In this document: positions 25,994-39,851 of the stretch, in pieces
Layout of the letters: every line of letters begins with the position of its first letter
Position numbering within the stretch: the stretch's first letter is position 1
Assembly: GCA_963771885.1 (NCBI GenBank)
Contig: CAVYVF010000023.1
Coordinates: 256,001-320,000, forward strand
DNA: 64,000 bases
Source: Candidatus Bathyarchaeota archaeon
GTDB lineage: Archaea; Thermoproteota; Bathyarchaeia; TCS64
Direction of reading: 5' to 3'
The notes under the pieces: generated by a model
The model's input: only the letters and a program-made list of their open reading frames with translations
The model's database searches: none
What the model was told of the DNA's origin: nothing
Made by a program: the position numbers and the translations under genes

Positions 25994-26974
25994 GTGGCTC
26001 AGATGCAGGTAGCCGACGGCGTCCACCAGTTCAAGATTCCAATGAGGCACAACCCCCTCGGATACACATACTCATACTTCCTCAAGGAGGCGAAGACGCT
26101 CATCGACGCCGGCATACCCTCAAGGGACTCACTCGCCGCCCTCGAGAAGCAGCTAGGGGAACAGGGCACCCGAGTCAAAGACCTCGAGCGGATAATCATC
26201 ACCCACATGCACAACGACCACGTCGGCCTCATAGAGTACATCAGGGAGAGCGCCAATGTCGAGACCGTCGCCCACAGGATAGCCGAGGAACACCAGCAAG
26301 CCCAAATCAGGTGGTACAAAGACATGTACAGAAACATCTCCGAGGAGCTCCAACTCCTAGGCGGTGGCTCCTTCCAACAGTTCCTCAGCCGCTTCGAACA
26401 CGCCTTCAGGGAGGACCCCAAGCCCCTCAAACTCAACACGCTCATCGAGGACGACGCGGTCATCGACCTCCCCGGCGCCAAGCTAAGGGTGATCTGGACA
26501 CCTGGACACGCAGCCGAGCACATTTGCCTCCACGACGCTGAGAAGCAGATACTCTTCAGCGGCGACCACGTCCTCCCCAAGATCACAAGCCACGTCAGCG
26601 AACACACCTGGGAGAAACGCGACCCACTCGGAGACTACCTCGCCAGCCTCGTCAAGGTCCGCGACCTCCCCGTCAACCTCATCCTCCCAGGACACGAGAC
26701 AAGCTTCACAAACCTCCCCGACCGCATCACGCAGCTCTTCAAACACCACGAAGCCCGCCTAGAAGAGGTAAGATCCGCGTTGAAGAACGGTAAGAGCACC
26801 GTCTTCGAGGTAGCAAGCGTGATCCACTGGGACAGCCGCCCATGGCTAGTAATGGACTTCTGGACGAAGCGCATGGCCGCGACCGAGACCTACGCACACC
26901 TCATATACCTTCGGAACAAGGGCGAGATAACCGAAAAGACGGTCGACGATACACTGTACTACACTCTGGCTTAA
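25994..26974 (+). CDS. MBL-fold metallo-hydrolase with C-terminal winged helix
   Basis: THMHNDHVG, TPGH, SGDH and PGH motifs. Confidence 0.9.
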   Translation: MAQMQVADGVHQFKIPMRHNPLGYTYSYFLKEAKTLIDAGIPSRDSLAALEKQLGEQGTRVKDLERIIITHMHNDHVGLIEYIRESANVETVAHRIAEEHQQAQIRWYKDMYRNISEELQLLGGGSFQQFLSRFEHAFREDPKPLKLNTLIEDDAVIDLPGAKLRVIWTPGHAAEHICLHDAEKQILFSGDHVLPKITSHVSEHTWEKRDPLGDYLASLVKVRDLPVNLILPGHETSFTNLPDRITQLFKHHEARLEEVRSALKNGKSTVFEVASVIHWDSRPWLVMDFWTKRMAATETYAHLIYLRNKGEITEKTVDDTLYYTLA

Positions 26975-27630
26975 CGCCAGACCTTGACGCCCTTCTCGAC
27001 CAGGTACTGAGCAGCAAGGTCCGCGATGTCAGGCGCCTTAAAGGGAATACGCATCTCCTTGATCTGCTCGAGCAGATCACGGTACGTGATCTCCTCACGC
27101 CCCCTCTTGACGTACTGATCCATGATGGTCTGAGCAACCTCCTCCGCAACCCTATACTTAGGACTGAGAGTCCTATAGTGGTGACGCAACGCAGCAGCGA
27201 TCTCGTCGCCACTCGCACTGCTAAGAGCCCAGACAGTGGGGCGTGGACCACCCTTACTCGACTGAACCTTCGACACCTTCAACGCGGGACTGATAAGTCC
27301 GACGGCCCTAAGCCTCTTAAGAGTCCTGTAAACAGTCGCCTCAGGCTGATTAAGCTCAGTCTGCAGCACCCACGCCGTACCCGCTCCATGAAGGCAAAAG
27401 TAAAGGAACGTCTCAGCAACGGCCGGAGAACTGAATATATTCTCGCTAAAGTTAAGGAGCTCCTGAATATTCTTGAGGGTAGTAGCTAGGTCATTCTTCT
27501 CATTGAGAAGGAGCAGCTGACGGAAGATCTGGGTGTATTTGACGAAATTACTCTCGTCTGGCCGCGACCTGATAACCGATCGACTTTTATCGAGGTTTAA
27601 CGCATCTCTCAAGGGCACAACTCGAGCCAT
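26971..27630 (-). CDS. Winged-helix DNA-binding protein (TrmB/ArsR-like HTH)
   Basis: TAWVLQTELNQPEATVYRTLKRLRAVGLI helix-turn-helix; ATG at 27630. Confidence 0.7.
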   Translation of the reverse strand: MARVVPLRDALNLDKSRSVIRSRPDESNFVKYTQIFRQLLLLNEKNDLATTLKNIQELLNFSENIFSSPAVAETFLYFCLHGAGTAWVLQTELNQPEATVYRTLKRLRAVGLISPALKVSKVQSSKGGPRPTVWALSSASGDEIAAALRHHYRTLSPKYRVAEEVAQTIMDQYVKRGREEITYRDLLEQIKEMRIPFKAPDIADLAAQYLVEKGVKVWR

Positions 27631-27694
27631 AGTGTCGTCACATAACCTAGCCTTTCGTCGGCGAAAGAAAAACGGACGCGATAAGCTTATAAGA

Positions 27695-27727
27695 TTACTT
27701 GTTAACAAGTAAACATGTAAACAAGTA
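27695..27727. promoter_or_regulatory. Operator-like array: 18-bp perfect palindrome plus tandem 8-bp AACAWGTA units
   Basis: ttacttgttaacaagtaa (27695-27712); aacaagta/aacatgta/aacaagta at 27704-27727; lies between two divergent DNA-binding genes. Confidence 0.75.
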
Positions 27728-27747: not shown

Positions 27748-28197
27748 ATGACACGCAAGACAGTCGCCATCCGAGGCCTCGACACGGGGCTTTACAACGA
27801 GGTCTTCTCAATGGCGAAGAAGGATGGCAAGCGCGTCAGCGACCTGGTGAACTCTGCGCTCAAGGCCTATATCGATGGGGACGTTGCTCCTGTTAAACTG
27901 GGGGAGCCAGTCATCGAGGCAGGGGCGACACAGTCTGCCGGCAGCTTCGTCCTCAGCGTGGAGGATGAGGGTGAGGTCACGCTCTCGAAGAACGATGTGC
28001 TTGACATCAGCAGGGACATGGGTCCCTTTAAGATCGAGAGCAGCGGGACGCTGACGTTCGAGAAGGACGTGGACTCTGAGGCACTCAGGGGCATAGAGAA
28101 GATCGTTATCCTCTCGGGTGAGGTCAGGGTGCCGAAGAAGACCTATCCACAGTTCCTTATTAAGTGCCAGATCAAGGGTAAGCTCGACAAGTATTGA
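27748..28197 (+). CDS. Ribbon-helix-helix protein with uncharacterised C-terminal domain
   Basis: KTVAIRGLD..LY......AKKDGKRVSDLVNSALKAYI RHH pattern. Confidence 0.7.
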   Translation: MTRKTVAIRGLDTGLYNEVFSMAKKDGKRVSDLVNSALKAYIDGDVAPVKLGEPVIEAGATQSAGSFVLSVEDEGEVTLSKNDVLDISRDMGPFKIESSGTLTFEKDVDSEALRGIEKIVILSGEVRVPKKTYPQFLIKCQIKGKLDKY

Positions 28198-30566: not shown

Positions 30567-30748
30567 GTCGTATCTCTGGGGGATTGTGAGGGTATAAAGG
30601 ATACTCGGCTTGTGGCTGCTACCACAATGCACGTACATTAATAGACAAAATCAGAGGCATTTAGTTCGGTTACGTGTCCGAAAAACGTCGTTTTCGCTAC
30701 ACTTTTCGTGCATGAAGATAGAGATCGGGGTGAACGTCACTGTTAGAA

Positions 30749-31417
30749 CTAGAGACTCGGCTGCTGCTCGAGCTGCTGCTGGATGAGGTCGCGTATTTCC
30801 TTGCGGACACTGTAGCGGTAGGGCATAGCGTTTGTGCTGCGGTCGACAAAGCCCGACTCATAGAGCTTCTTGAGCATGCGCGCCGTATGCTCGCGTGTTG
30901 TGCCGAGGTGCTCCCTGATCTCGGGGACGGCGCCCTCGCCTACTTCAGCGATCTTCTTCAGGGCGCTGAGCTCCGTCTCGGTTAGCTGGCTGAGTATGTT
31001 ACCCTGCTGGACGGGTATGGGTGCCACTATGTCCTGGCGGACAACAATGCGCTGCTTGGGCGCCGTGGCGAGCTTTTGGACCTCCTTGCGGAGGGACTCC
31101 ATCGAGGTCTCGTTTGTCTCGACGCGGTTCTGAAGGCTCTTGACGGCTTCGAGGCCCTTGAGTGTTGCTTCCTTTGCCTCGCCGCTGTTGCGTAGCGCCT
31201 CAGATGCGACTATCTTGGCGGTGGTCGCCTCGTTCTCAGCCTTGGCGACGTCCTGCTGGAGTCTGTTCACCTGACGCGTGAAGCCGAATGTGATGTTGCG
31301 CACTGACTCGCGGGCGTCGTCGTACTCGGTAGTGGCCTCCTGAATCTTACGATAGAAAATGATGGAGGCGGCTACGGTTACTAGGAGTAGTGCAGCCGCG
31401 GTGAATGATAACTCCAA
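30749..31417 (-). CDS. Membrane-anchored coiled-coil protein with C-terminal winged-helix DNA-binding domain
   Basis: N-terminal TM (FTAAALLLVTVAASIIFY), about 110-aa heptad stalk, LTETE...TREHTARMLKKLYESGFVDR...PYRY wHTH. Likely TTG start. Confidence 0.8.
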   Translation of the reverse strand: MELSFTAAALLLVTVAASIIFYRKIQEATTEYDDARESVRNITFGFTRQVNRLQQDVAKAENEATTAKIVASEALRNSGEAKEATLKGLEAVKSLQNRVETNETSMESLRKEVQKLATAPKQRIVVRQDIVAPIPVQQGNILSQLTETELSALKKIAEVGEGAVPEIREHLGTTREHTARMLKKLYESGFVDRSTNAMPYRYSVRKEIRDLIQQQLEQQPSL

Positions 31418-31552
31418 GGTATCGCCGTCGAGTTTGCTCTGAGTGCATTGAGGCGTGCCGTGCTTTTTACTCCTCCGGTTACCCTCGCCGGGTGGCTGCA
31501 ACCGGGGAACTGACTATTTAAAAGACTCCGCCCACCATAGCTTTGAATCCGC

Positions 31553-33874
31553 TTGGCCGCCGAGCGAGTCGAGGCAGAGGTGCACGTCACCGGGAGGGTG
31601 CAGGGGGTGGGCTTCCGCCCCTTCATCTATCGCCTCGCCGTCCGCCACGGCCTAAGTGGTTACGTCATTAACCTCGGTGACGCCGGCGTAGAAGTCGTGG
31701 TCGAAGGCGCAGCCGAGGACGTGGGCGACTTCATAAACGCAATCAAGGCCGAGGCGCCCACGGTCTCCGAGGTTAGCGGTGTACACGCCCACCACAAGCC
31801 CTACAGGGGCAGGTTCACAGGGTTCGTCATCGACAAGAGCAGGACCATAGGGCAGTCGGCCTCGGGTATCTTCCCTCCCGACATCGGCATCTGCCCCGAT
31901 TGCCTCATGGATATGGAGGACAGGAAAGGACGCTGGTTCGAGTACCCGTTCACAGCCTGCGCCTGGTGCGGGCCACGCTTCACAGGCGTTAGGGAACTCC
32001 CCTACGACAGGGAAAGGACCCACATGCGCGGCTTCCCTATGTGCGAGGACTGTGTGACCGACTACAGGAACCCACTTGACAGGCGGTTCGACGCCCAGGG
32101 GATAACCTGCAGTGTCTGCGGCCCAAAGATGAGTCTGCTCGACGCCTCGGGGCAGCGAATGGGAGTCACCGACGTCTTCTCAGAGGCCTCGAAGCTACTA
32201 AGAGAAGGGCACGTCGTCGCCGTCAAGGGCATTGGGGGCTTCCATATCGCCGCCCTAGCCACCGAGGATGACACTGTGGCAAAGCTCAGGGCACGGAAGA
32301 ACCGTCCCTACCAGCCATTCGCCCTGATGGCACCCGACATAAGCGCCGTCAGGAGATTCGCCGAACCCGACGAGAACGAGTCGAAGGCGCTAGTCTCTTG
32401 GCAGAAGCCGATAGTCCTCATCAGGAGGAAAGAGGAGGTCATTTCGGAGCTCGTCGCCCCCGGATTGAGCCGTGTTGGCGTAATGTTGCCCTACACAGGG
32501 ATACAGGTGATGCTCTTCAAGCGTCTGGGGTTGCCCGCTCTCATTATGACGAGTGGCAACAGGTCGGGATTGCCTATGGCGACGACGAACGAAGCCGCGC
32601 TGAGCGAGCTGCGGGGCATCGCCGACTATTTCCTCGTTCACGAAAGGGAGATCGTGAACAGGTGTGACGATTCGCTTTTGAGGATTAATGGAGAAAGAGT
32701 CGCCTTCATACGCAGATCGCGTGGATACGTACCTGATCCTGTGGAAATTCCAATCAAAAAAGGGGTATCATTCGCAGTCGGGACCGAGCAGAGTAACGTC
32801 GCCGCGATCACTCTCAACGGTAAATGTTATCAAACGCAATATTTAGGTGATATATCCAACCTCGAGTCCTTCGACTACGAGAAAACAGCCATCTACACTA
32901 TGCGTGACCTTCTGAAAATCACATGTAACCCCGATGTGATTGCCTGTGACCAACATCCAGGTTACATGACATCACAGTTGGCCGAGGTGATATCACAAGA
33001 GACAGGGTCGCAAATCACAAAGTCACAGCACCATCACGCCCACATAGTCTCAGTGTGCGCTGAGAACGGAGTAAAACCAGACGAAACAGTCGTGGGAATA
33101 GCGCTAGATGGTGCGGGATACGGTCCTGACGGTACGATCTGGGGTGGAGAAGTGCTAATTTCGACGTATTTTAGCTATAAAAGGGCAGGTCATCTGCAAA
33201 ATCTACCTATGCCGGGAGGCGATCAATGCGCATACAGCCCATACAGGATGCTGATCTCAGCCCTGACCCTCACCTTGAGTGACGAAGAGATACGTGATAT
33301 CACGAAGAATCACATATCACAAGCGTTAGTTAACGGTCATGATGAGCTCAACGTGATACTCCATGAGGCACGGACGAAAAACGTTTCAAAAACTTCGAGT
33401 TCTGGCCGTTATCTCGACTCAATTGCTTCACTTCTTGGCTTGACATATCGCAGAACCTACGAAGGTGAACCCGCGATGAGACTAGAGTCACTGGCTGAAC
33501 TTGGAAACCCTGAAAACATACAAATAGAACCGAAAATCAGTCTCAACAAGGATATTCGAGTGCTTAACACGGCTAATATCCTCAATTACCTGACAATATA
33601 CCAAAATAAGCTTAAAAAACAAGATATTGCGGCATTTGCCCAAAAATATCTCGCCGTTGGTATATCGAATATTGCAATCGAGATAGCACAAGCAGAACAC
33701 ATAGATACAGTGGTAATATCTGGCGGAGTCTTCGTAAACCAGTACATATCTAATACAATCGTCAAAACTCTCGAAAAAAACGGAGTAAAAGTATTAGTTA
33801 ATAAAAAAACCGCACCTGGAGATGGTGGTTCAGCTTTAGGACAATCGTGTATAGCCCTTGCATCTGTGATTTAG
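31553..33874 (+). CDS. hypF: Hydrogenase maturation carbamoyltransferase HypF
   Basis: GRVQGVGFRP acylphosphatase domain, two CxxC zinc fingers, KGIGGFH, QHHHAH and PGDGGSALGQ motifs. Confidence 0.95.
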   Translation: MAAERVEAEVHVTGRVQGVGFRPFIYRLAVRHGLSGYVINLGDAGVEVVVEGAAEDVGDFINAIKAEAPTVSEVSGVHAHHKPYRGRFTGFVIDKSRTIGQSASGIFPPDIGICPDCLMDMEDRKGRWFEYPFTACAWCGPRFTGVRELPYDRERTHMRGFPMCEDCVTDYRNPLDRRFDAQGITCSVCGPKMSLLDASGQRMGVTDVFSEASKLLREGHVVAVKGIGGFHIAALATEDDTVAKLRARKNRPYQPFALMAPDISAVRRFAEPDENESKALVSWQKPIVLIRRKEEVISELVAPGLSRVGVMLPYTGIQVMLFKRLGLPALIMTSGNRSGLPMATTNEAALSELRGIADYFLVHEREIVNRCDDSLLRINGERVAFIRRSRGYVPDPVEIPIKKGVSFAVGTEQSNVAAITLNGKCYQTQYLGDISNLESFDYEKTAIYTMRDLLKITCNPDVIACDQHPGYMTSQLAEVISQETGSQITKSQHHHAHIVSVCAENGVKPDETVVGIALDGAGYGPDGTIWGGEVLISTYFSYKRAGHLQNLPMPGGDQCAYSPYRMLISALTLTLSDEEIRDITKNHISQALVNGHDELNVILHEARTKNVSKTSSSGRYLDSIASLLGLTYRRTYEGEPAMRLESLAELGNPENIQIEPKISLNKDIRVLNTANILNYLTIYQNKLKKQDIAAFAQKYLAVGISNIAIEIAQAEHIDTVVISGGVFVNQYISNTIVKTLEKNGVKVLVNKKTAPGDGGSALGQSCIALASVI

Positions 33875-34775
33875 TGTGATATCACACCACTTTAAGCTTC
33901 GTCGGCCGTGCCATCAACTCGATTCCTTCAGTTAACTCATCCTCGATCCGCTTGAGCAATCGCCCTAGAAACCTTAGGACCCGATTTTTCTACAGCCGTA
34001 AGATAATCCCTCAATTTTTCGACGAGATTTTGGTACTCCTCAAAGGGTTTTGCATCGAAGACCCCAACGTAGCTAAGTAAAACTATAGTGAATATTGAAG
34101 ATATCACTCGCCTCCTTCCCTGCCCTAATGTACGGCTAAATGAGCCCCGACTCACCTTTTTGTTCCTATAAATGACCTTATTTTTAAATGGTACCTTTTC
34201 CTCAGACATTACGTCAATTAAAAGATCAATCATCAGTGTTTCAAATTGAATCTTCGTTAAATTGCTGTTTTTAAGTAACAAGTCTGTAATTGGGTCTTGA
34301 AACGCTTTTTGGATTATATTTTGGGCTTCTTCAGGTGATTCCATTGCATCGCCTCAATACAGAGTTGATTACGCCAAATGATACCATTGTATACAATACT
34401 GTATGCCGTATCAATCTTTTGTTTTCACCAGTCAACAACGTCTATTACTGCTTTAAGGAAAGCGGATCGCGTTTTCTAGGTATATAACATAAAAAATCAT
34501 TATAAATTAGCTAAAAATACATCAGGCACTGTTTAAATCCGCCAAATAACACCCTCACAAACAATGATCACTATAGAGCAATTACAGATCGACCCCGACA
34601 AAACCCTGGCAAAGATCGCTAAATTCATAAAAAATGCTTTAAAAAGAGCACACCAAGACGGTGTTGTCATAGCTGTAAGCGGCGGAATCGACTCAGCAGT
34701 AGCACTAGCCGCATCTGTAAGAGTCCTGGGACCGGACAAGATCACGGCGCTCACCCTTCCCGAACGTGATATCAC
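32987..34775. repeat. Cluster of GTGATATCAC palindromes (perfect copies at 32987, 33294, 33876, 34766)
   Basis: Read directly. Three copies extend to 12-14 bp perfect palindromes; several 7-8/10 matches lie nearby. Confidence 0.85.
33882..34344 (-). CDS. Uncharacterised HTH-like protein; C-terminus restored by removing one base near 33960
   Basis: NLTKIQFETL...VSRGSFSRTLGQGRRRV HTH-like segment followed by a hydrophobic helix; the shifted frame continues LLKRIEDELTEGIELMARPTKLKVV*. Confidence 0.65.
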
Positions 34776-35358
34776 GCCTCAGGCAGACGTACAGGATGTG
34801 ATGGAACTCTGTGAGGCATTTGAAGTCACGTGTGAGCACGTTGAAATCACGCCGATGTTACACGTGATGCGGAAAAACATCCCCAAATTCGACCCAGACG
34901 ACCGCGTCGTCTACGGAAACATGAAAGCGCGCCTTAGGATGCTCCTCGCCTACTACTACGCCAACAAACGCAAGTCCATGGTCATGGGAACATCAAATAA
35001 AACCGAGCTTTACCTAGGCTATTTCACTAAATACGGTGACGGCGGAGTCGACATCATGCCTTTCGCCGACCTCTACAAGTGCCAGATCAGGACACTGGGC
35101 AGGCACCTGGGAGTACCAAAGAGTATCACCGAAAAGCCGGCTTCGGCTCGCCTCTGGGCAGGACAGGACACAGAGAAGGACATCGGACTACCCTACAACA
35201 GCATGGACCTTATCGTCCACACCCACTTGTTGGGCTGGGAACCAGCCAAGATTGCCGCCGAGATAGGCATAGACCAGCGCAGTGTAGAGGGGATAATAAC
35301 CAGGATAGCAGCCAACAAGCACAAACGTCGCTCTCCGGCAATCTTAAGACTAAGCTAA
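34564..35358 (+). CDS. nadE: NH3-dependent NAD+ synthetase
   Basis: SGGIDS, NMKARLRM, GYFTKYGDG and PASARLW motifs. Confidence 0.95.
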   Translation: MITIEQLQIDPDKTLAKIAKFIKNALKRAHQDGVVIAVSGGIDSAVALAASVRVLGPDKITALTLPERDITPQADVQDVMELCEAFEVTCEHVEITPMLHVMRKNIPKFDPDDRVVYGNMKARLRMLLAYYYANKRKSMVMGTSNKTELYLGYFTKYGDGGVDIMPFADLYKCQIRTLGRHLGVPKSITEKPASARLWAGQDTEKDIGLPYNSMDLIVHTHLLGWEPAKIAAEIGIDQRSVEGIITRIAANKHKRRSPAILRLS

Positions 35359-36412: not shown

Positions 36413-39400
36413 TTGAGCCAGCTCCGCATGACCCCAGAGTACAGGGCATACTTCGACGAGTTAGAGGCGAAGCTGGCTAAGCTATACGAGATCGCAGGCG
36501 AGGCGAGGAAAAAGGGCTTCGATGCCTCCACCGAGGTCGAGGCTCAGATCACGCGGGACATCGCGGAGCGAGTCGAGAAGATGCTCGGCCCACCTGGCCT
36601 CACGGCGCGCATGCGCGAGCTTGAGGGCATGGACCGCCGAGAGATGGCCTTCAAGATCGCGGAGGAGATCACCCTCGGACGCTTCGGCAGCTTAGAGAAG
36701 GAAAAGGCCGCCGACCAGGCGATACGCACCGCCCTCGCCATAATGACTGAGGGCGTAACCGTCGCCCCAATCGAGGGCCTCCCAAAGATATGCATAAAGC
36801 CCAACCCCGACCGCACACAATACCTGAGCCTCTACTTCGCCGGCCCCATACGCCCCGCCGGAGGCACAGCCCAGGCGATGACCCTCGTCGTCGCTGACCA
36901 TGTCCGCAAGAAGCTCGGCCTAGAGAAGTTCCAGCCAAGCGAGAACCAGGTCCAGCGCTTCGTCGAGGAAGTGCGCCTCTACGAGCGCACCGTTCGCCGC
37001 TTCCAGTACCACACCACCGACGAGGACCTCGAGGCAGCAATACGCCAGATACCTGTCGAGGCCACGGGAGTCGCCACCGATCCCTTCGAGGTGAGCAACT
37101 ACCGAGACGTCGCCGGTATTGAGACGAACAGGCTCCGCGGCGGCGCCCTCATCGTCGTCGTGGATGGCGTCGTTGGACGCGCAAGGAAACTCCACGGCGC
37201 CTGCGACAAGCTCGGCATCACCGGCTGGGAGTGGCTCCTCAAGATGGGGAGGAAGAAGAAGGTCGAGGGTGAGGTCAAGGCGGAGCCCACTGCCGCCTTC
37301 ATGGATGAGATAATTGTTGGTCGCCCTGTCTTCAGCTTCCCCGGGGCGATAGGGGGTTTCCGACTCCGCTACGGCAGGGCGCGCAACACGGGGCTCGCAG
37401 CCTCTGGCGTACACCCAGCAGCCATGGTCGTGCTCAACAAGTTCCTCGCCACGGGCGTTCAAATGAGAACAGAGCTACCGGGTAAGTCCGCCGCCACTTG
37501 CCCCGTCGACTCAATAGAGCCGCCAGTAGTGCGCCTCAAAGACGGCTCGGTACAGAGAGTAGAGACAGAAGCCGAGGCCGAGCTCCTCCTCCCCCAGATA
37601 AACAGGATAATCTTCCTCGGCGACTACCTCAGCAACGCCGGTGACTTCATCCAGAACAACAAGGCCCTACTCCCAACGGGGTACGACGAGAACCAGTGGG
37701 TGCAGGACCTCAACGCCTCATGCGCGAGGCTCGGCGAGGACGCCGCCATAAGCCTCACGGGGCTCCTCTCAGAGAGGATTAGGTTCCTCAAGTCGAGCCC
37801 CCTCAACCGCCCGACTGTGGATGAGGCGCTCGCAGTCACGGCTATGGACGTCCCCATACACCCGAGGTGGAACTATCACTGGTCCGCCCTCACGAAAGAC
37901 GAATCTACTAGCCTTCCGCAACACACTCGCCACCGAGTACAACCCTGAGTCCACCGAGTACCCAAACATCCCCGAGATCAAAGCGCCCCTCGAGGCACTG
38001 CTCCTGCCCCACAAGGTTCGCGGCGGCAAACTCGACCTCGGTGAGGACGCCCGCGTGTTAGCGAGGACCCTCAACCTAGGCCAGAGATACACGGAGGTCA
38101 AGGGCGAGAAGCCGATTGAGGTCGTGAACTACTTCGCCGGGTTCCCCGTACGGGAGAAGGTAGGGGTATTTGTCGGAGCCCGCATGGGGCGCCCTGAGAA
38201 GGCGAAGGAGCGTCGCATGGCCCCCTACGTCCACAGCCTCTACCCCGTCGGTGAGGCAGGCGGCCCCCAGAGGGACATACTCAAGGCAGAGAAGGGCAAA
38301 ACGGTCAGGATCGAGCTCAGTCAGCGGGAGTGCCTCACCTGTGGCGAGATAGGCAGCACCACCGTCTGCCAGAACTGCGGGGGAGAGACCAAAGAGATAC
38401 GCAGGTGCAGCCGCTGCGGACTCCGATTCGAGGGTGAGCGGTGCCCCCAGTGCCGATCCGAGATCGTCTCCTACACAGGCGTCGATGTAGACCTGAAGGA
38501 CGAGCTCGAGGCGGCGCGCAAAGCGATCGGCGGACAGCTACCGGCGCGCGTCAAGTGCGTGAAGAGGCTAATGAACGCGACGAGGACGCCAGAGAACCTC
38601 GCCAAAGGCATACTCCGTGCCCGTTACGACCTTAGCGTCTTCAAGGACGGCACGCTCCGCTTCGACCTTACCGATATACCCCTCACACACTTCAGACCCA
38701 ACGAGGTCTTCGTCCCCGTTGAGAGGCTCAGGAGCCTCGGCTACACCCATGACACGCATGGCGCACCCCTAGAGCGCCCCGACCAGATGCTTGAGCTCAA
38801 GGTGCAGGACGTAATACTCCCCGAGGACTGCGGCGACTACCTCCTCAAGGCATCCAAGTTCCTCGATGACCAGCTACGCGACTTCTACGGGATGCAGCCG
38901 TACTACAACGCAAAGAGTCGGAACGACCTCGTGGGCTGCCTGCTCCTTGGCCTGGCGCCGCACACCTCCGCCGCCATAACAGGGCGCCTCATTGGCTTCA
39001 CGAAGGTACGCAACCAGTACGCTCACCCCCTTTGGCACGCTGCGAAGAGGAGGAACTGCGACGGCGATGAGGACGCAGTCATGTTAGCGCTCGACCCGCT
39101 GCTCAACTTCAGTAAAGCCTACCTGCCACAGCAGAGCGGTGGCCAGATGGACGCGCCTCTATTTATCATCCCCACGATGAACCCGAGCGAGGTTGATAAG
39201 GAGGCGCACAACGTCGACGTGAACAGCAGCTACCCACCGGAGTTCTACAAGCTTTGCTCGGAGGGGGCGGGGAGCGGCCAGTACGGCGCCTTAGTCGACA
39301 CGATCGGGGCACGCCTCGGCACCGAGGCCCAGTTCGAGGGTATAAGTTACACCGAGGAGTGCAGCGACATAAACCTCGGCAGCTTCCACGGCGCTTATAA

Positions 39401-39851
39401 CACACTCACCACGATGGTGGAGAAGCTCGACAGCCAGCTAGAGCTCGCCCAGAAGCTACGCGCCGTCGACGCCAAGCAGGTTGCCCTTAAGATCCTCAAC
39501 AGTCACTTCATGAAGGACATCGTCGGGAACCTTCGTGCTTTCACCAGCCAGACCTTCCGCTGCACAAAGTGCAACAGGAAGTATAGGCGTCCCCCGCTCG
39601 CCGGGAAGTGCCTGCGCTGCGGCGGCACCATACAGATGACCGTCCACAAGGGCGGCATCGAGAAGTACCTCAAGCCCGCCCTCGACATGGTGAAGAAGTA
39701 CGAGCTCGACCCATACTACGTCGACCGCCTCGAGCTAGTAAAGCTGGAGATGAGCCAGATATTCGTCGAAGAGGCTGTCCCCGAGGAGACATCGAAGCAG
39801 TTCAGCCTCACCGACTTCATGCGGTCGTCTGCAAAGAAGCCCGCACAGTAA
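36413..39851 (+). CDS. polC: DNA polymerase D large catalytic subunit DP2, with an apparent +1 frameshift near 37904
   Basis: YFAGPIRPAGGT, GFRLRYGR, GARMGRPEKA, catalytic NCDGDED and C-terminal Zn finger; the two ORFs join on removing one base. Confidence 0.95.

Follow-up and report, generated by a model that had tools for sequence, protein, structure and literature searches.

The window analysed here, the whole stretch of 64,000 nucleotides from a Candidatus Bathyarchaeota archaeon, contains a gene whose product combines a membrane anchor, a long stalk and a winged helix in one chain (hereafter TMwH). Its start codon is TTG, which aligns with the ATG or TTG starts of its relatives. The gene, the parts of its product and two neighbouring genes are as follows:

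30749..31417, minus strand: TMwH gene (P0001), coding for a membrane-anchored stalk and winged-helix protein of 222 amino acids (ORF, Pfam, AF2, homologues)
31355..31411, minus strand: single transmembrane (TM) helix at the N-terminus, residues ~3-21, with R23-K24 just after it; N-out/C-in topology predicted (hydropathy and positive-inside bias)
31064..31348, minus strand: long helical stalk with a heptad pattern, residues ~24-118 (~95 residues, ~14 nm if extended; AF2 and heptad analysis)
30764..30994, minus strand: winged helix-turn-helix (wHTH), residues ~142-218 (Pfam MarR/TrmB, AF2, Foldseek wHTH matches)
30878..30895, minus strand: recognition-helix motif R175-E176-H177-x-x-R180 (REH), invariant in 50/50 aligned sequences
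31553..33874, plus strand: hypF, inserted between U135 and the TMwH gene in the source lineage and bearing part of the array described below (Pfam, neighbourhood comparison)
33882..34344, minus strand: U135, a conserved upstream partner gene without Pfam match, with a sigma-region-4/LuxR-like HTH fold (41/41 loci; VIA Z 5-6, middling)

A TM helix, a heptad stalk and a C-terminal wHTH without a sensor domain had been proposed in the original prediction, and hydropathy, heptads, AF2 and Pfam agree with this architecture. Only one segment of the protein is hydrophobic (Kyte-Doolittle mean of 2.33 for the best 19-residue stretch, at residues 3-21, and at most 0.78 elsewhere), and Lys/Arg residues are richer on the C-terminal side of the helix in 42 of 43 TM-bearing homologues (mean 2.9 vs 0.3). 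By this positive-inside pattern the stalk and the wHTH are predicted to face the cytoplasm rather than the outside of the cell. Heptad a/d positions of the stalk (residues 24-118) are 67-78% hydrophobic, and the AF2 model, based on a 50-row alignment, consists of a continuous helix over residues 2-118, a low-confidence, disordered linker at ~121-140 and a wHTH at 147-218 with a mean pLDDT of 92.5. A sensor domain could be found neither in this model nor among Pfam matches. The winged helices are probably oligomerised by the stalk. A homodimer prediction, which scored 0.21 against a mark of 0.42, was set aside.

Family matches place the wHTH in the MarR/TrmB/Lrs14 type. Pfam MarR (PF01047) covers residues 145-196 with an E-value of 2e-7 and 31.2 bits against a cut-off of 24.6, and the matches of TrmB and HTH_Crp_2 (E 5.6e-4 for the latter) stay under their cut-offs. 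Eight residues (R175, E176, H177, R180, K183, R193, P199 and Y202) are invariant in all 50 aligned TMwH sequences, with a mean column identity of 21%. The spacing of R175-E176-H-T-A-R180 equals that of R180-E181-x-x-x-R185 in Escherichia coli CRP, which is used to read TGTGA according to passages of PMC11253593. In searches of PDB sequences, the TMwH profile gave generic coiled-coil matches only, and the wHTH gave nothing better than E 0.03. AspA was considered as a structural relative of the wHTH and rejected, as its Foldseek match (rank 2, E 2.3e-4) was no better than generic MarR/ArsR matches.

The candidate target of this protein is an array of TGTGAY half-sites at positions ~32900-34870 of the window, which extends over 2-3 kb and is the densest in the genome. 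Its components, together with one rejected site, are listed below (none is assigned a strand):

32900..33890: principal array of TGTGAY half-sites, lying in the 3' half of hypF, where composition shifts towards AT, and at the convergent ends of hypF and U135 (half-site density scan)
32987..32996: GTGATATCAC palindrome within hypF (codons GTG ATA TCA C)
33294..33303: GTGATATCAC palindrome within hypF (CGT GAT ATC AC), kept at codon level in 18/18 aligned hypF (one as GTGACGTCAC)
33876..33885: GTGATATCAC palindrome whose minus-strand TGA is the U135 stop codon, position kept in 33/41 loci
34740..34870: second small cluster inside nadE, including GTGATATCAC at 34766-34775
30730..30740: GTGAACGTCAC, rejected, outside the system

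The densest 2-kb interval of the source genome lies at ~32001-34000 and holds 14 half-sites, compared with a mean of 1.25; after correction for composition, the array has an ln p of -18.3, as against -7.0 for the runner-up of 9703 intervals, and no second comparable TGTGAY cluster could be found in this genome. All four copies of GTGATATCAC in the 2.46-Mb genome fall in a span of less than 1.8 kb in the window (32987-34775), and the nearest lies ~1.57 kb from the TMwH gene start, in keeping with the palindrome cluster placed about 1.5 kb away by the original prediction. The palindrome has the consensus (T)GTGAYRTCAC(A), and its relaxed form GTGA-NN-TCAC was counted 108 times within 93.5 kb of sequence around U135 and the gene start, compared with 12 times in the remaining 717 kb; the near interval was drawn post hoc. 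The array has the half-site TGTGAY as its basic unit, rather than the 10-bp palindrome alone. In genome-wide counts over 301 genomes, GTGAYRTCAC did not clearly exceed the reversed control, the signal being a local one. An AT-rich island at 32600-34800 (GC 0.42-0.45 vs about 0.58) cuts across hypF, U135 and nadE and coincides with the array. On the other hand, GTGAACGTCAC at 30730, previously taken for a related site just downstream of the gene, was dismissed as a chance occurrence: its 3-bp spacer puts it in a class with 38 copies genome-wide, and 13 of 13 relatives checked lack it at this place.

The neighbourhood was compared across 41 loci, namely 40 of the 109 loci of the class (selected for long contigs and family spread) and the studied window. 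U135 was present in all 41, DP1 in 39, DP2 in 34, cdc6 in 29 and c9, a second small wHTH gene, in 26. The homologues are thus tightly linked to the replication locus, and they are tightly linked to the motif as well. The order DP2-U135-gene-c9-cdc6-DP1 was observed in 4/4 loci of family f31. ORB-like boxes were detected in 20 of 29 loci with cdc6 versus 1 of 11 without it, and the ORB-like TCCAGTAGAA occurs in 13 of 22 c9-cdc6 gaps; boxes of the TTCCAGT(G/A)GAA type beside cdc6 are what we take to be the ORB consensus. The TMwH gene usually lies 1-5 kb from cdc6 and these boxes, a region that is the probable oriC judging from gene and motif content. The placement in a core replication block upstream of DP1, as originally proposed, thus holds ancestrally, and DP1 does lie downstream of TMwH in the window, but a cupin gene intervenes, and cdc6 and ORB-like boxes are missing at the TMwH locus of the source genome, which also lacks a c9 match. 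The GC skew of the contig shows no origin-like turn at this locus. Within family f1, 39 of 41 genomes have only Cdc6 paralogues of 29-36% identity and one has no match, so that an origin-type Cdc6 was not found in 40 of 41, and the family nevertheless retains the TMwH gene, U135 and the array despite this.

Several features of the neighbouring genes were also recorded. The U135 ORF is cut to 135 amino acids by one extra base near 33960, which is absent from the contigs of three DNA runs and is probably an assembly error. U135 occurs in 141 of 301 phylum genomes, and its searches gave no Pfam or NCBIfam match, no PDB sequence match and no significant Foldseek match (VIA Z up to 6.0); on comparison, it was rejected as a homologue of TMwH. 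DP2, the large subunit of PolD (window 36413-39851, plus strand), is split into overlapping ORFs (36413-37948 and 37821-39851), probably by another assembly frameshift, and is also split in L035 and L053. The conserved c9 gene beside cdc6 (L040-L068; e.g., L041:10277-10699, minus strand) has its own upstream motif, TGTGAAR, with 84 matches within 500 bp upstream in 26 loci. A divergent pair at window 26971-27708 (minus strand) and 27748-28197 (plus strand) adjoins DP1 in loci without cdc6 and could have taken the place of the initiator region lost there; the product of the former has a weak TrmB/Replic_Relax-like HTH, and that of the latter has no Pfam match and a ribbon-helix-helix-like N-terminus. 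No ParA/SegA-like gene was evident among the gene clusters that recur around the 41 + 20 loci, most of these clusters being named from sequence and unscanned by Pfam, and AAA_31 matches in the source genome are more than 120 kb off or on another contig. SMC is present in the source genome (C2:227090), and no tubulin/FtsZ or CdvA match was found in this 92%-complete assembly, whose incompleteness limits the meaning of that result. RNA support is thin, consisting of contigs only from one metatranscriptome with a word share of 0.05.

The TMwH gene was found in 109 of 151 Bathyarchaeia genomes, nearly always in single copy, and three near-complete Bathyarchaeia genomes lack it. At E 1e-6, matches are present in 186 of 301 phylum genomes, the weakest of which resemble generic HTHs. 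Weak phylum matches (E about 1e-7 to 1e-9) are probably generic HTH or coiled-coil proteins and were set aside; in five such genomes, the four readable ORFs that were inspected had neither REH nor arrays. Named orthologues occur in Nitrosopumilus, Nitrosarchaeum and Nitrosotenuis records (Nitrosopumilaceae). Close homologues are labelled 'MarR family transcriptional regulator, Candidatus Bathyarchaeota' by NCBI, and no description of the family or its motif was found in literature searches, the scope of which excluded subscription journals and supplements such as arCOG tables.

Of the 71 loci that bear the gene, 47 encode a membrane helix (43 called and 4 after start extension) and 24 do not. 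The helix is kept in all but four examined Bathyarchaeia loci and in the four f31 loci. Eighteen TM-less loci have an intact REH helix, most of which retain arrays, and their products may use another anchor or none. The TM-less orthologues are those of L050, L054, L065, L066, L075-L076, L079, L082-L086, L088-L090, L100-L103 and L105-L109; in several of them, a short basic/hydrophobic stretch at the N-terminus could serve as an amphipathic anchor.

The assignment of the array to TMwH is based on a comparison of 81 loci. The half-site had been defined on Bathyarchaeia ahead of any look at other lineages, and a best 2-kb count of at least 7 was used as the threshold. Loci with an intact REH reached it in 58 of 65 cases (median 12), compared with 0 of 65 for the reversed control motif (median 3). 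None of the six variant loci (KEH, PEH or REY) did so; five of these six are from one family, and the idea arose from one of them. Most natural REH variants alter the Arg equivalent to CRP R180. A family-level covariation test (29 vs 7 groups) gave a p of 4e-5, which is overstated because kin are not independent, and the arrays of two REH loci in family f41 are weak, with counts of 3 and 4. On this covariation of gene, motif and residue, the TMwH wHTH very probably binds TGTGAY, and the original proposal that it recognises the array is well supported. It is quite improbable that the array is bound by the U135 product or the c9 wHTH, with the TMwH gene as a merely linked neighbour. The HTH-like fold of U135, its adjacency in 41/41 Bathyarchaeia loci, the perfect palindrome overlapping its stop codon and the occurrence of perfect palindromes outside Bathyarchaeia mostly in U135-bearing loci would fit such a binder. 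However, loci with U135 (with or without c9) that lack the TMwH gene show an array in 0 of 10 cases, or 0 of 9 if L104 is excluded, whose genome carries the TMwH gene on another contig (the other nine genomes have no orthologue-grade match). Conversely, ATCACA is the top enriched hexamer of 10 loci with the TMwH gene and without U135, and the array persists where the U135 or c9 gene is absent, as in the source genome with regard to c9, whose motif TGTGAAR also differs. U135 might still be a co-binder at perfect palindromes.

The placement of the sites differs between lineages. Where hypF is inserted (20 loci), only 0-2 half-sites occur in the 300 bp ahead of the TMwH gene and the peaks lie 1.5-3.5 kb away, whereas 1-9 half-sites are found in the same interval of seven uninserted Bathyarchaeia loci. 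No TGTGAY is present in the promoter gaps 31418-31552 and 34345-34563 of the studied window. Where the 3' end of hypF abuts U135, sites favour the 3' half of hypF in 23/23 loci (204 vs 26, hand-summed), and in lineages without U135 there, they favour the 5' half in 5/5 loci (24 vs 8). At the 33294 site, all 18 aligned hypF genes use CGT for Arg, whereas in 23 conserved Arg columns the top codon has a mean share of 0.47; the one amino-acid change observed at the site still preserves the consensus. The GC3 of hypF drops from 0.77 to 0.43 along the gene. The bias between the halves of hypF and the retention of codons imply that DNA sites are selected by position, in coding sequence and convergent gene ends. 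Moreover, sites retained at codon level in hypF, 1.5-3.4 kb from the TMwH promoter, argue against plain autoregulation, and with so many candidate sites in coding sequence and convergent 3' ends, binding would not be confined to ordinary promoters. Among 56 Nitrosopumilaceae loci, which are close kin, sites are most frequent within the 250 bp that precede the match start and the 500 bp that follow it (409, 83 and 128 per bin vs 54, 0 and 4 in the control), a placement that fits autoregulation.

The reading we put forward, with about an even chance of being right, is that TMwH is a sequence-specific chromosome-to-membrane anchor, a tether like RicO or RocS and apparently unrelated to them in sequence. 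The N-terminal helix would be lodged in the membrane, the stalk would project the winged helices ~14 nm into the cytoplasm and probably oligomerise them, and the R-E-H-x-x-R helix would, by covariation, read TGTGAY half-sites. Loading of many copies on one 2-3 kb array, whose ancestral place is beside the cdc6/ORB origin, might then fix or position this chromosome region at the membrane and, for instance, aid the separation of new origins, as the parallels with RicO, RocS and RacA suggest. Tethering may be accompanied by some self-regulation, as in plasmid centromere-operators. For this reading speaks the fact that the gene is conserved and nearly always single-copy, with one dominant array per genome tracking the gene and the Arg. 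The linkage to replication genes and ORB-like boxes, the build-up of sites in whichever half of hypF adjoins the array, the nearly bare promoter of hypF-inserted loci and the precedent of RacA, whose ram sites likewise fall in coding sequence, count in its favour as well. The main evidence against a universal tether is that the anchor is inessential to the protein-array pair, as 24 of 71 loci lack the helix and most of those with an intact REH keep arrays. Further points against it are the size of the array (2-3 kb vs 600-700 kb for ram/ricS), the lack of an evident ParA/SegA-like neighbour, the persistence in family f1 without an origin-type Cdc6, a GC skew that marks no origin at the locus, the operator-like placement of sites in Nitrosopumilaceae, the three near-complete Bathyarchaeia genomes without the gene and the weak arrays of the two f41 loci. 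From the original suggestion of an analogous archaeal anchoring factor, recognition of the array has therefore gained support, whereas the role in segregation would follow by analogy, with the helix missing in several array-keeping lineages.

Alternatively, TMwH may be a membrane-bound or protease-released transcription regulator that uses the same TGTGAY sites to govern its own gene, U135 and the replication genes nearby, perhaps via looping or cell-cycle timing, the membrane link being regulatory and not mechanical. This is possible but doubtful. The MarR/TrmB/Lrs14-type wHTH with its CRP-like recognition motif, the crowding of sites upstream of TMwH in Nitrosopumilaceae and hypF-free Bathyarchaeia, and the arrays of TM-less orthologues are consistent with it, but the absence of a second comparable cluster in the genome leaves no visible regulon, the promoter is nearly bare in the 20 hypF-inserted loci while sites were gained or kept in hypF and convergent 3' ends, and neither a TGTGAY in the two window promoter gaps nor a sensor domain could be found. 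Considerably less probable is a modulator of replication initiation, in which a membrane-held origin would time or block re-initiation, or an accessory origin factor, with no part in segregation. The ancestral site 1-5 kb from cdc6 and ORB-like boxes and the AT-shifted zone over the array, seen in the GC3 of hypF, might suggest such a role; however, the gap that bears the ORBs does not contain the array (c9-cdc6 gaps hold 18 half-sites in 16.1 kb), and the array is fully kept both in a family without origin-type Cdc6 or ORBs at the locus and in loci far from cdc6.

The protein-array pair beside an archaeal origin is real, conserved and apparently undescribed, and a tethering role for it is plausible by analogy. 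Beyond the tether itself, it can tentatively be proposed, with slightly less than even confidence, that Bathyarchaeia, ammonia-oxidising archaea and related lineages share an ancient undescribed chromosomal centromere-plus-anchor system, in which a transmembrane stalk protein with a CRP-like head coats a single TGTGAY array beside oriC and ties this array directly to the membrane, the cassette lacking a ParA-type motor. If so, centromere and origin would be separable, since the array of family f1 has outlived origin-type Cdc6 and ORBs. Archaeal chromosome segregation is largely open: how Sulfolobus segregates its chromosomes is not known according to passages of a 2024 review (PMC7617429), and no archaeal chromosome-membrane tether is named in the literature passages covered. 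The TMwH locus offers a specific protein, a motif and a residue-level prediction (R175/E176/R180 vs TGTGA), and TMwH may be a long-sought means by which the chromosome is attached to the membrane in these archaea. The orthologues in Nitrosopumilaceae, a group with cultured members, make the question testable, and even if TMwH were a regulator, it would be a deeply conserved, origin-linked one with its site identified.

Several known systems share parts of this arrangement. MarR regulators are compact soluble dimers of ~140 amino acids with flanking dimerisation helices; TMwH has a wHTH of the same type, with a membrane helix and a ~95-residue stalk instead of the compact dimer form. Membrane-bound HTH regulators of the COG2512/DUF7343-like kind are known in archaea and likewise combine a membrane helix with a C-terminal wHTH, whereas TMwH has no DUF7343 match, and the sole such protein among the weak matches (L221) has neither REH nor array. 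The array also differs from the ORBs of Cdc6/Orc1 in motif and position, the ORB-like boxes being separate in the c9-cdc6 gap. CRP/FNR proteins resemble TMwH in the R-E-x-x-x-R spacing and the TGTGA half-site (passages of PMC11253593 for the former, sequence and covariation for TMwH), but TMwH lacks a cNMP-binding domain, its palindromes have a spacer of 2 bp and not 6 (TGTGA-N6-TCACA), and its half-site spacing is variable. TMwH is therefore not a canonical member of either the MarR or the CRP family. AspA of pNOB8 and SegB of Sulfolobus are, like TMwH (by covariation), archaeal proteins with palindromic sites next to their own gene, and passages of PMC5120986 describe AspA as a wHTH that spreads; both lack the membrane helix and long stalk of TMwH, which in turn has no evident ParA/SegA partner.

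The closest analogies are with bacterial proteins, although RicO, RocS and RacA families were absent among the Pfam, NCBIfam and PDB matches of TMwH. According to the passages covered of 10.64898/2026.03.06.710092, RacA of Bacillus subtilis anchors the origin region through origin-proximal ram sites that lie inside coding sequences, as do many of the candidate sites of TMwH; RacA is tethered via DivIVA, is sporulation-specific and has 25 sites over ~600 kb, whereas TMwH has a built-in anchor and the TGTGAY motif. RicO of Staphylococcus aureus and RocS of Streptococcus pneumoniae unite, like TMwH, a DNA-binding domain, a coiled coil and a membrane anchor in one chain, and RicO is described in passages of 10.64898/2026.03.06.710092 and PMC13042908 as binding a specific origin-proximal motif. 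The order is reversed in TMwH, with the anchor N-terminal and the wHTH C-terminal, and its anchor is a transmembrane rather than an amphipathic helix; in place of the nine sites over ~700 kb given for RicO in these passages, TMwH has one compact array of 2-3 kb beside its own gene.
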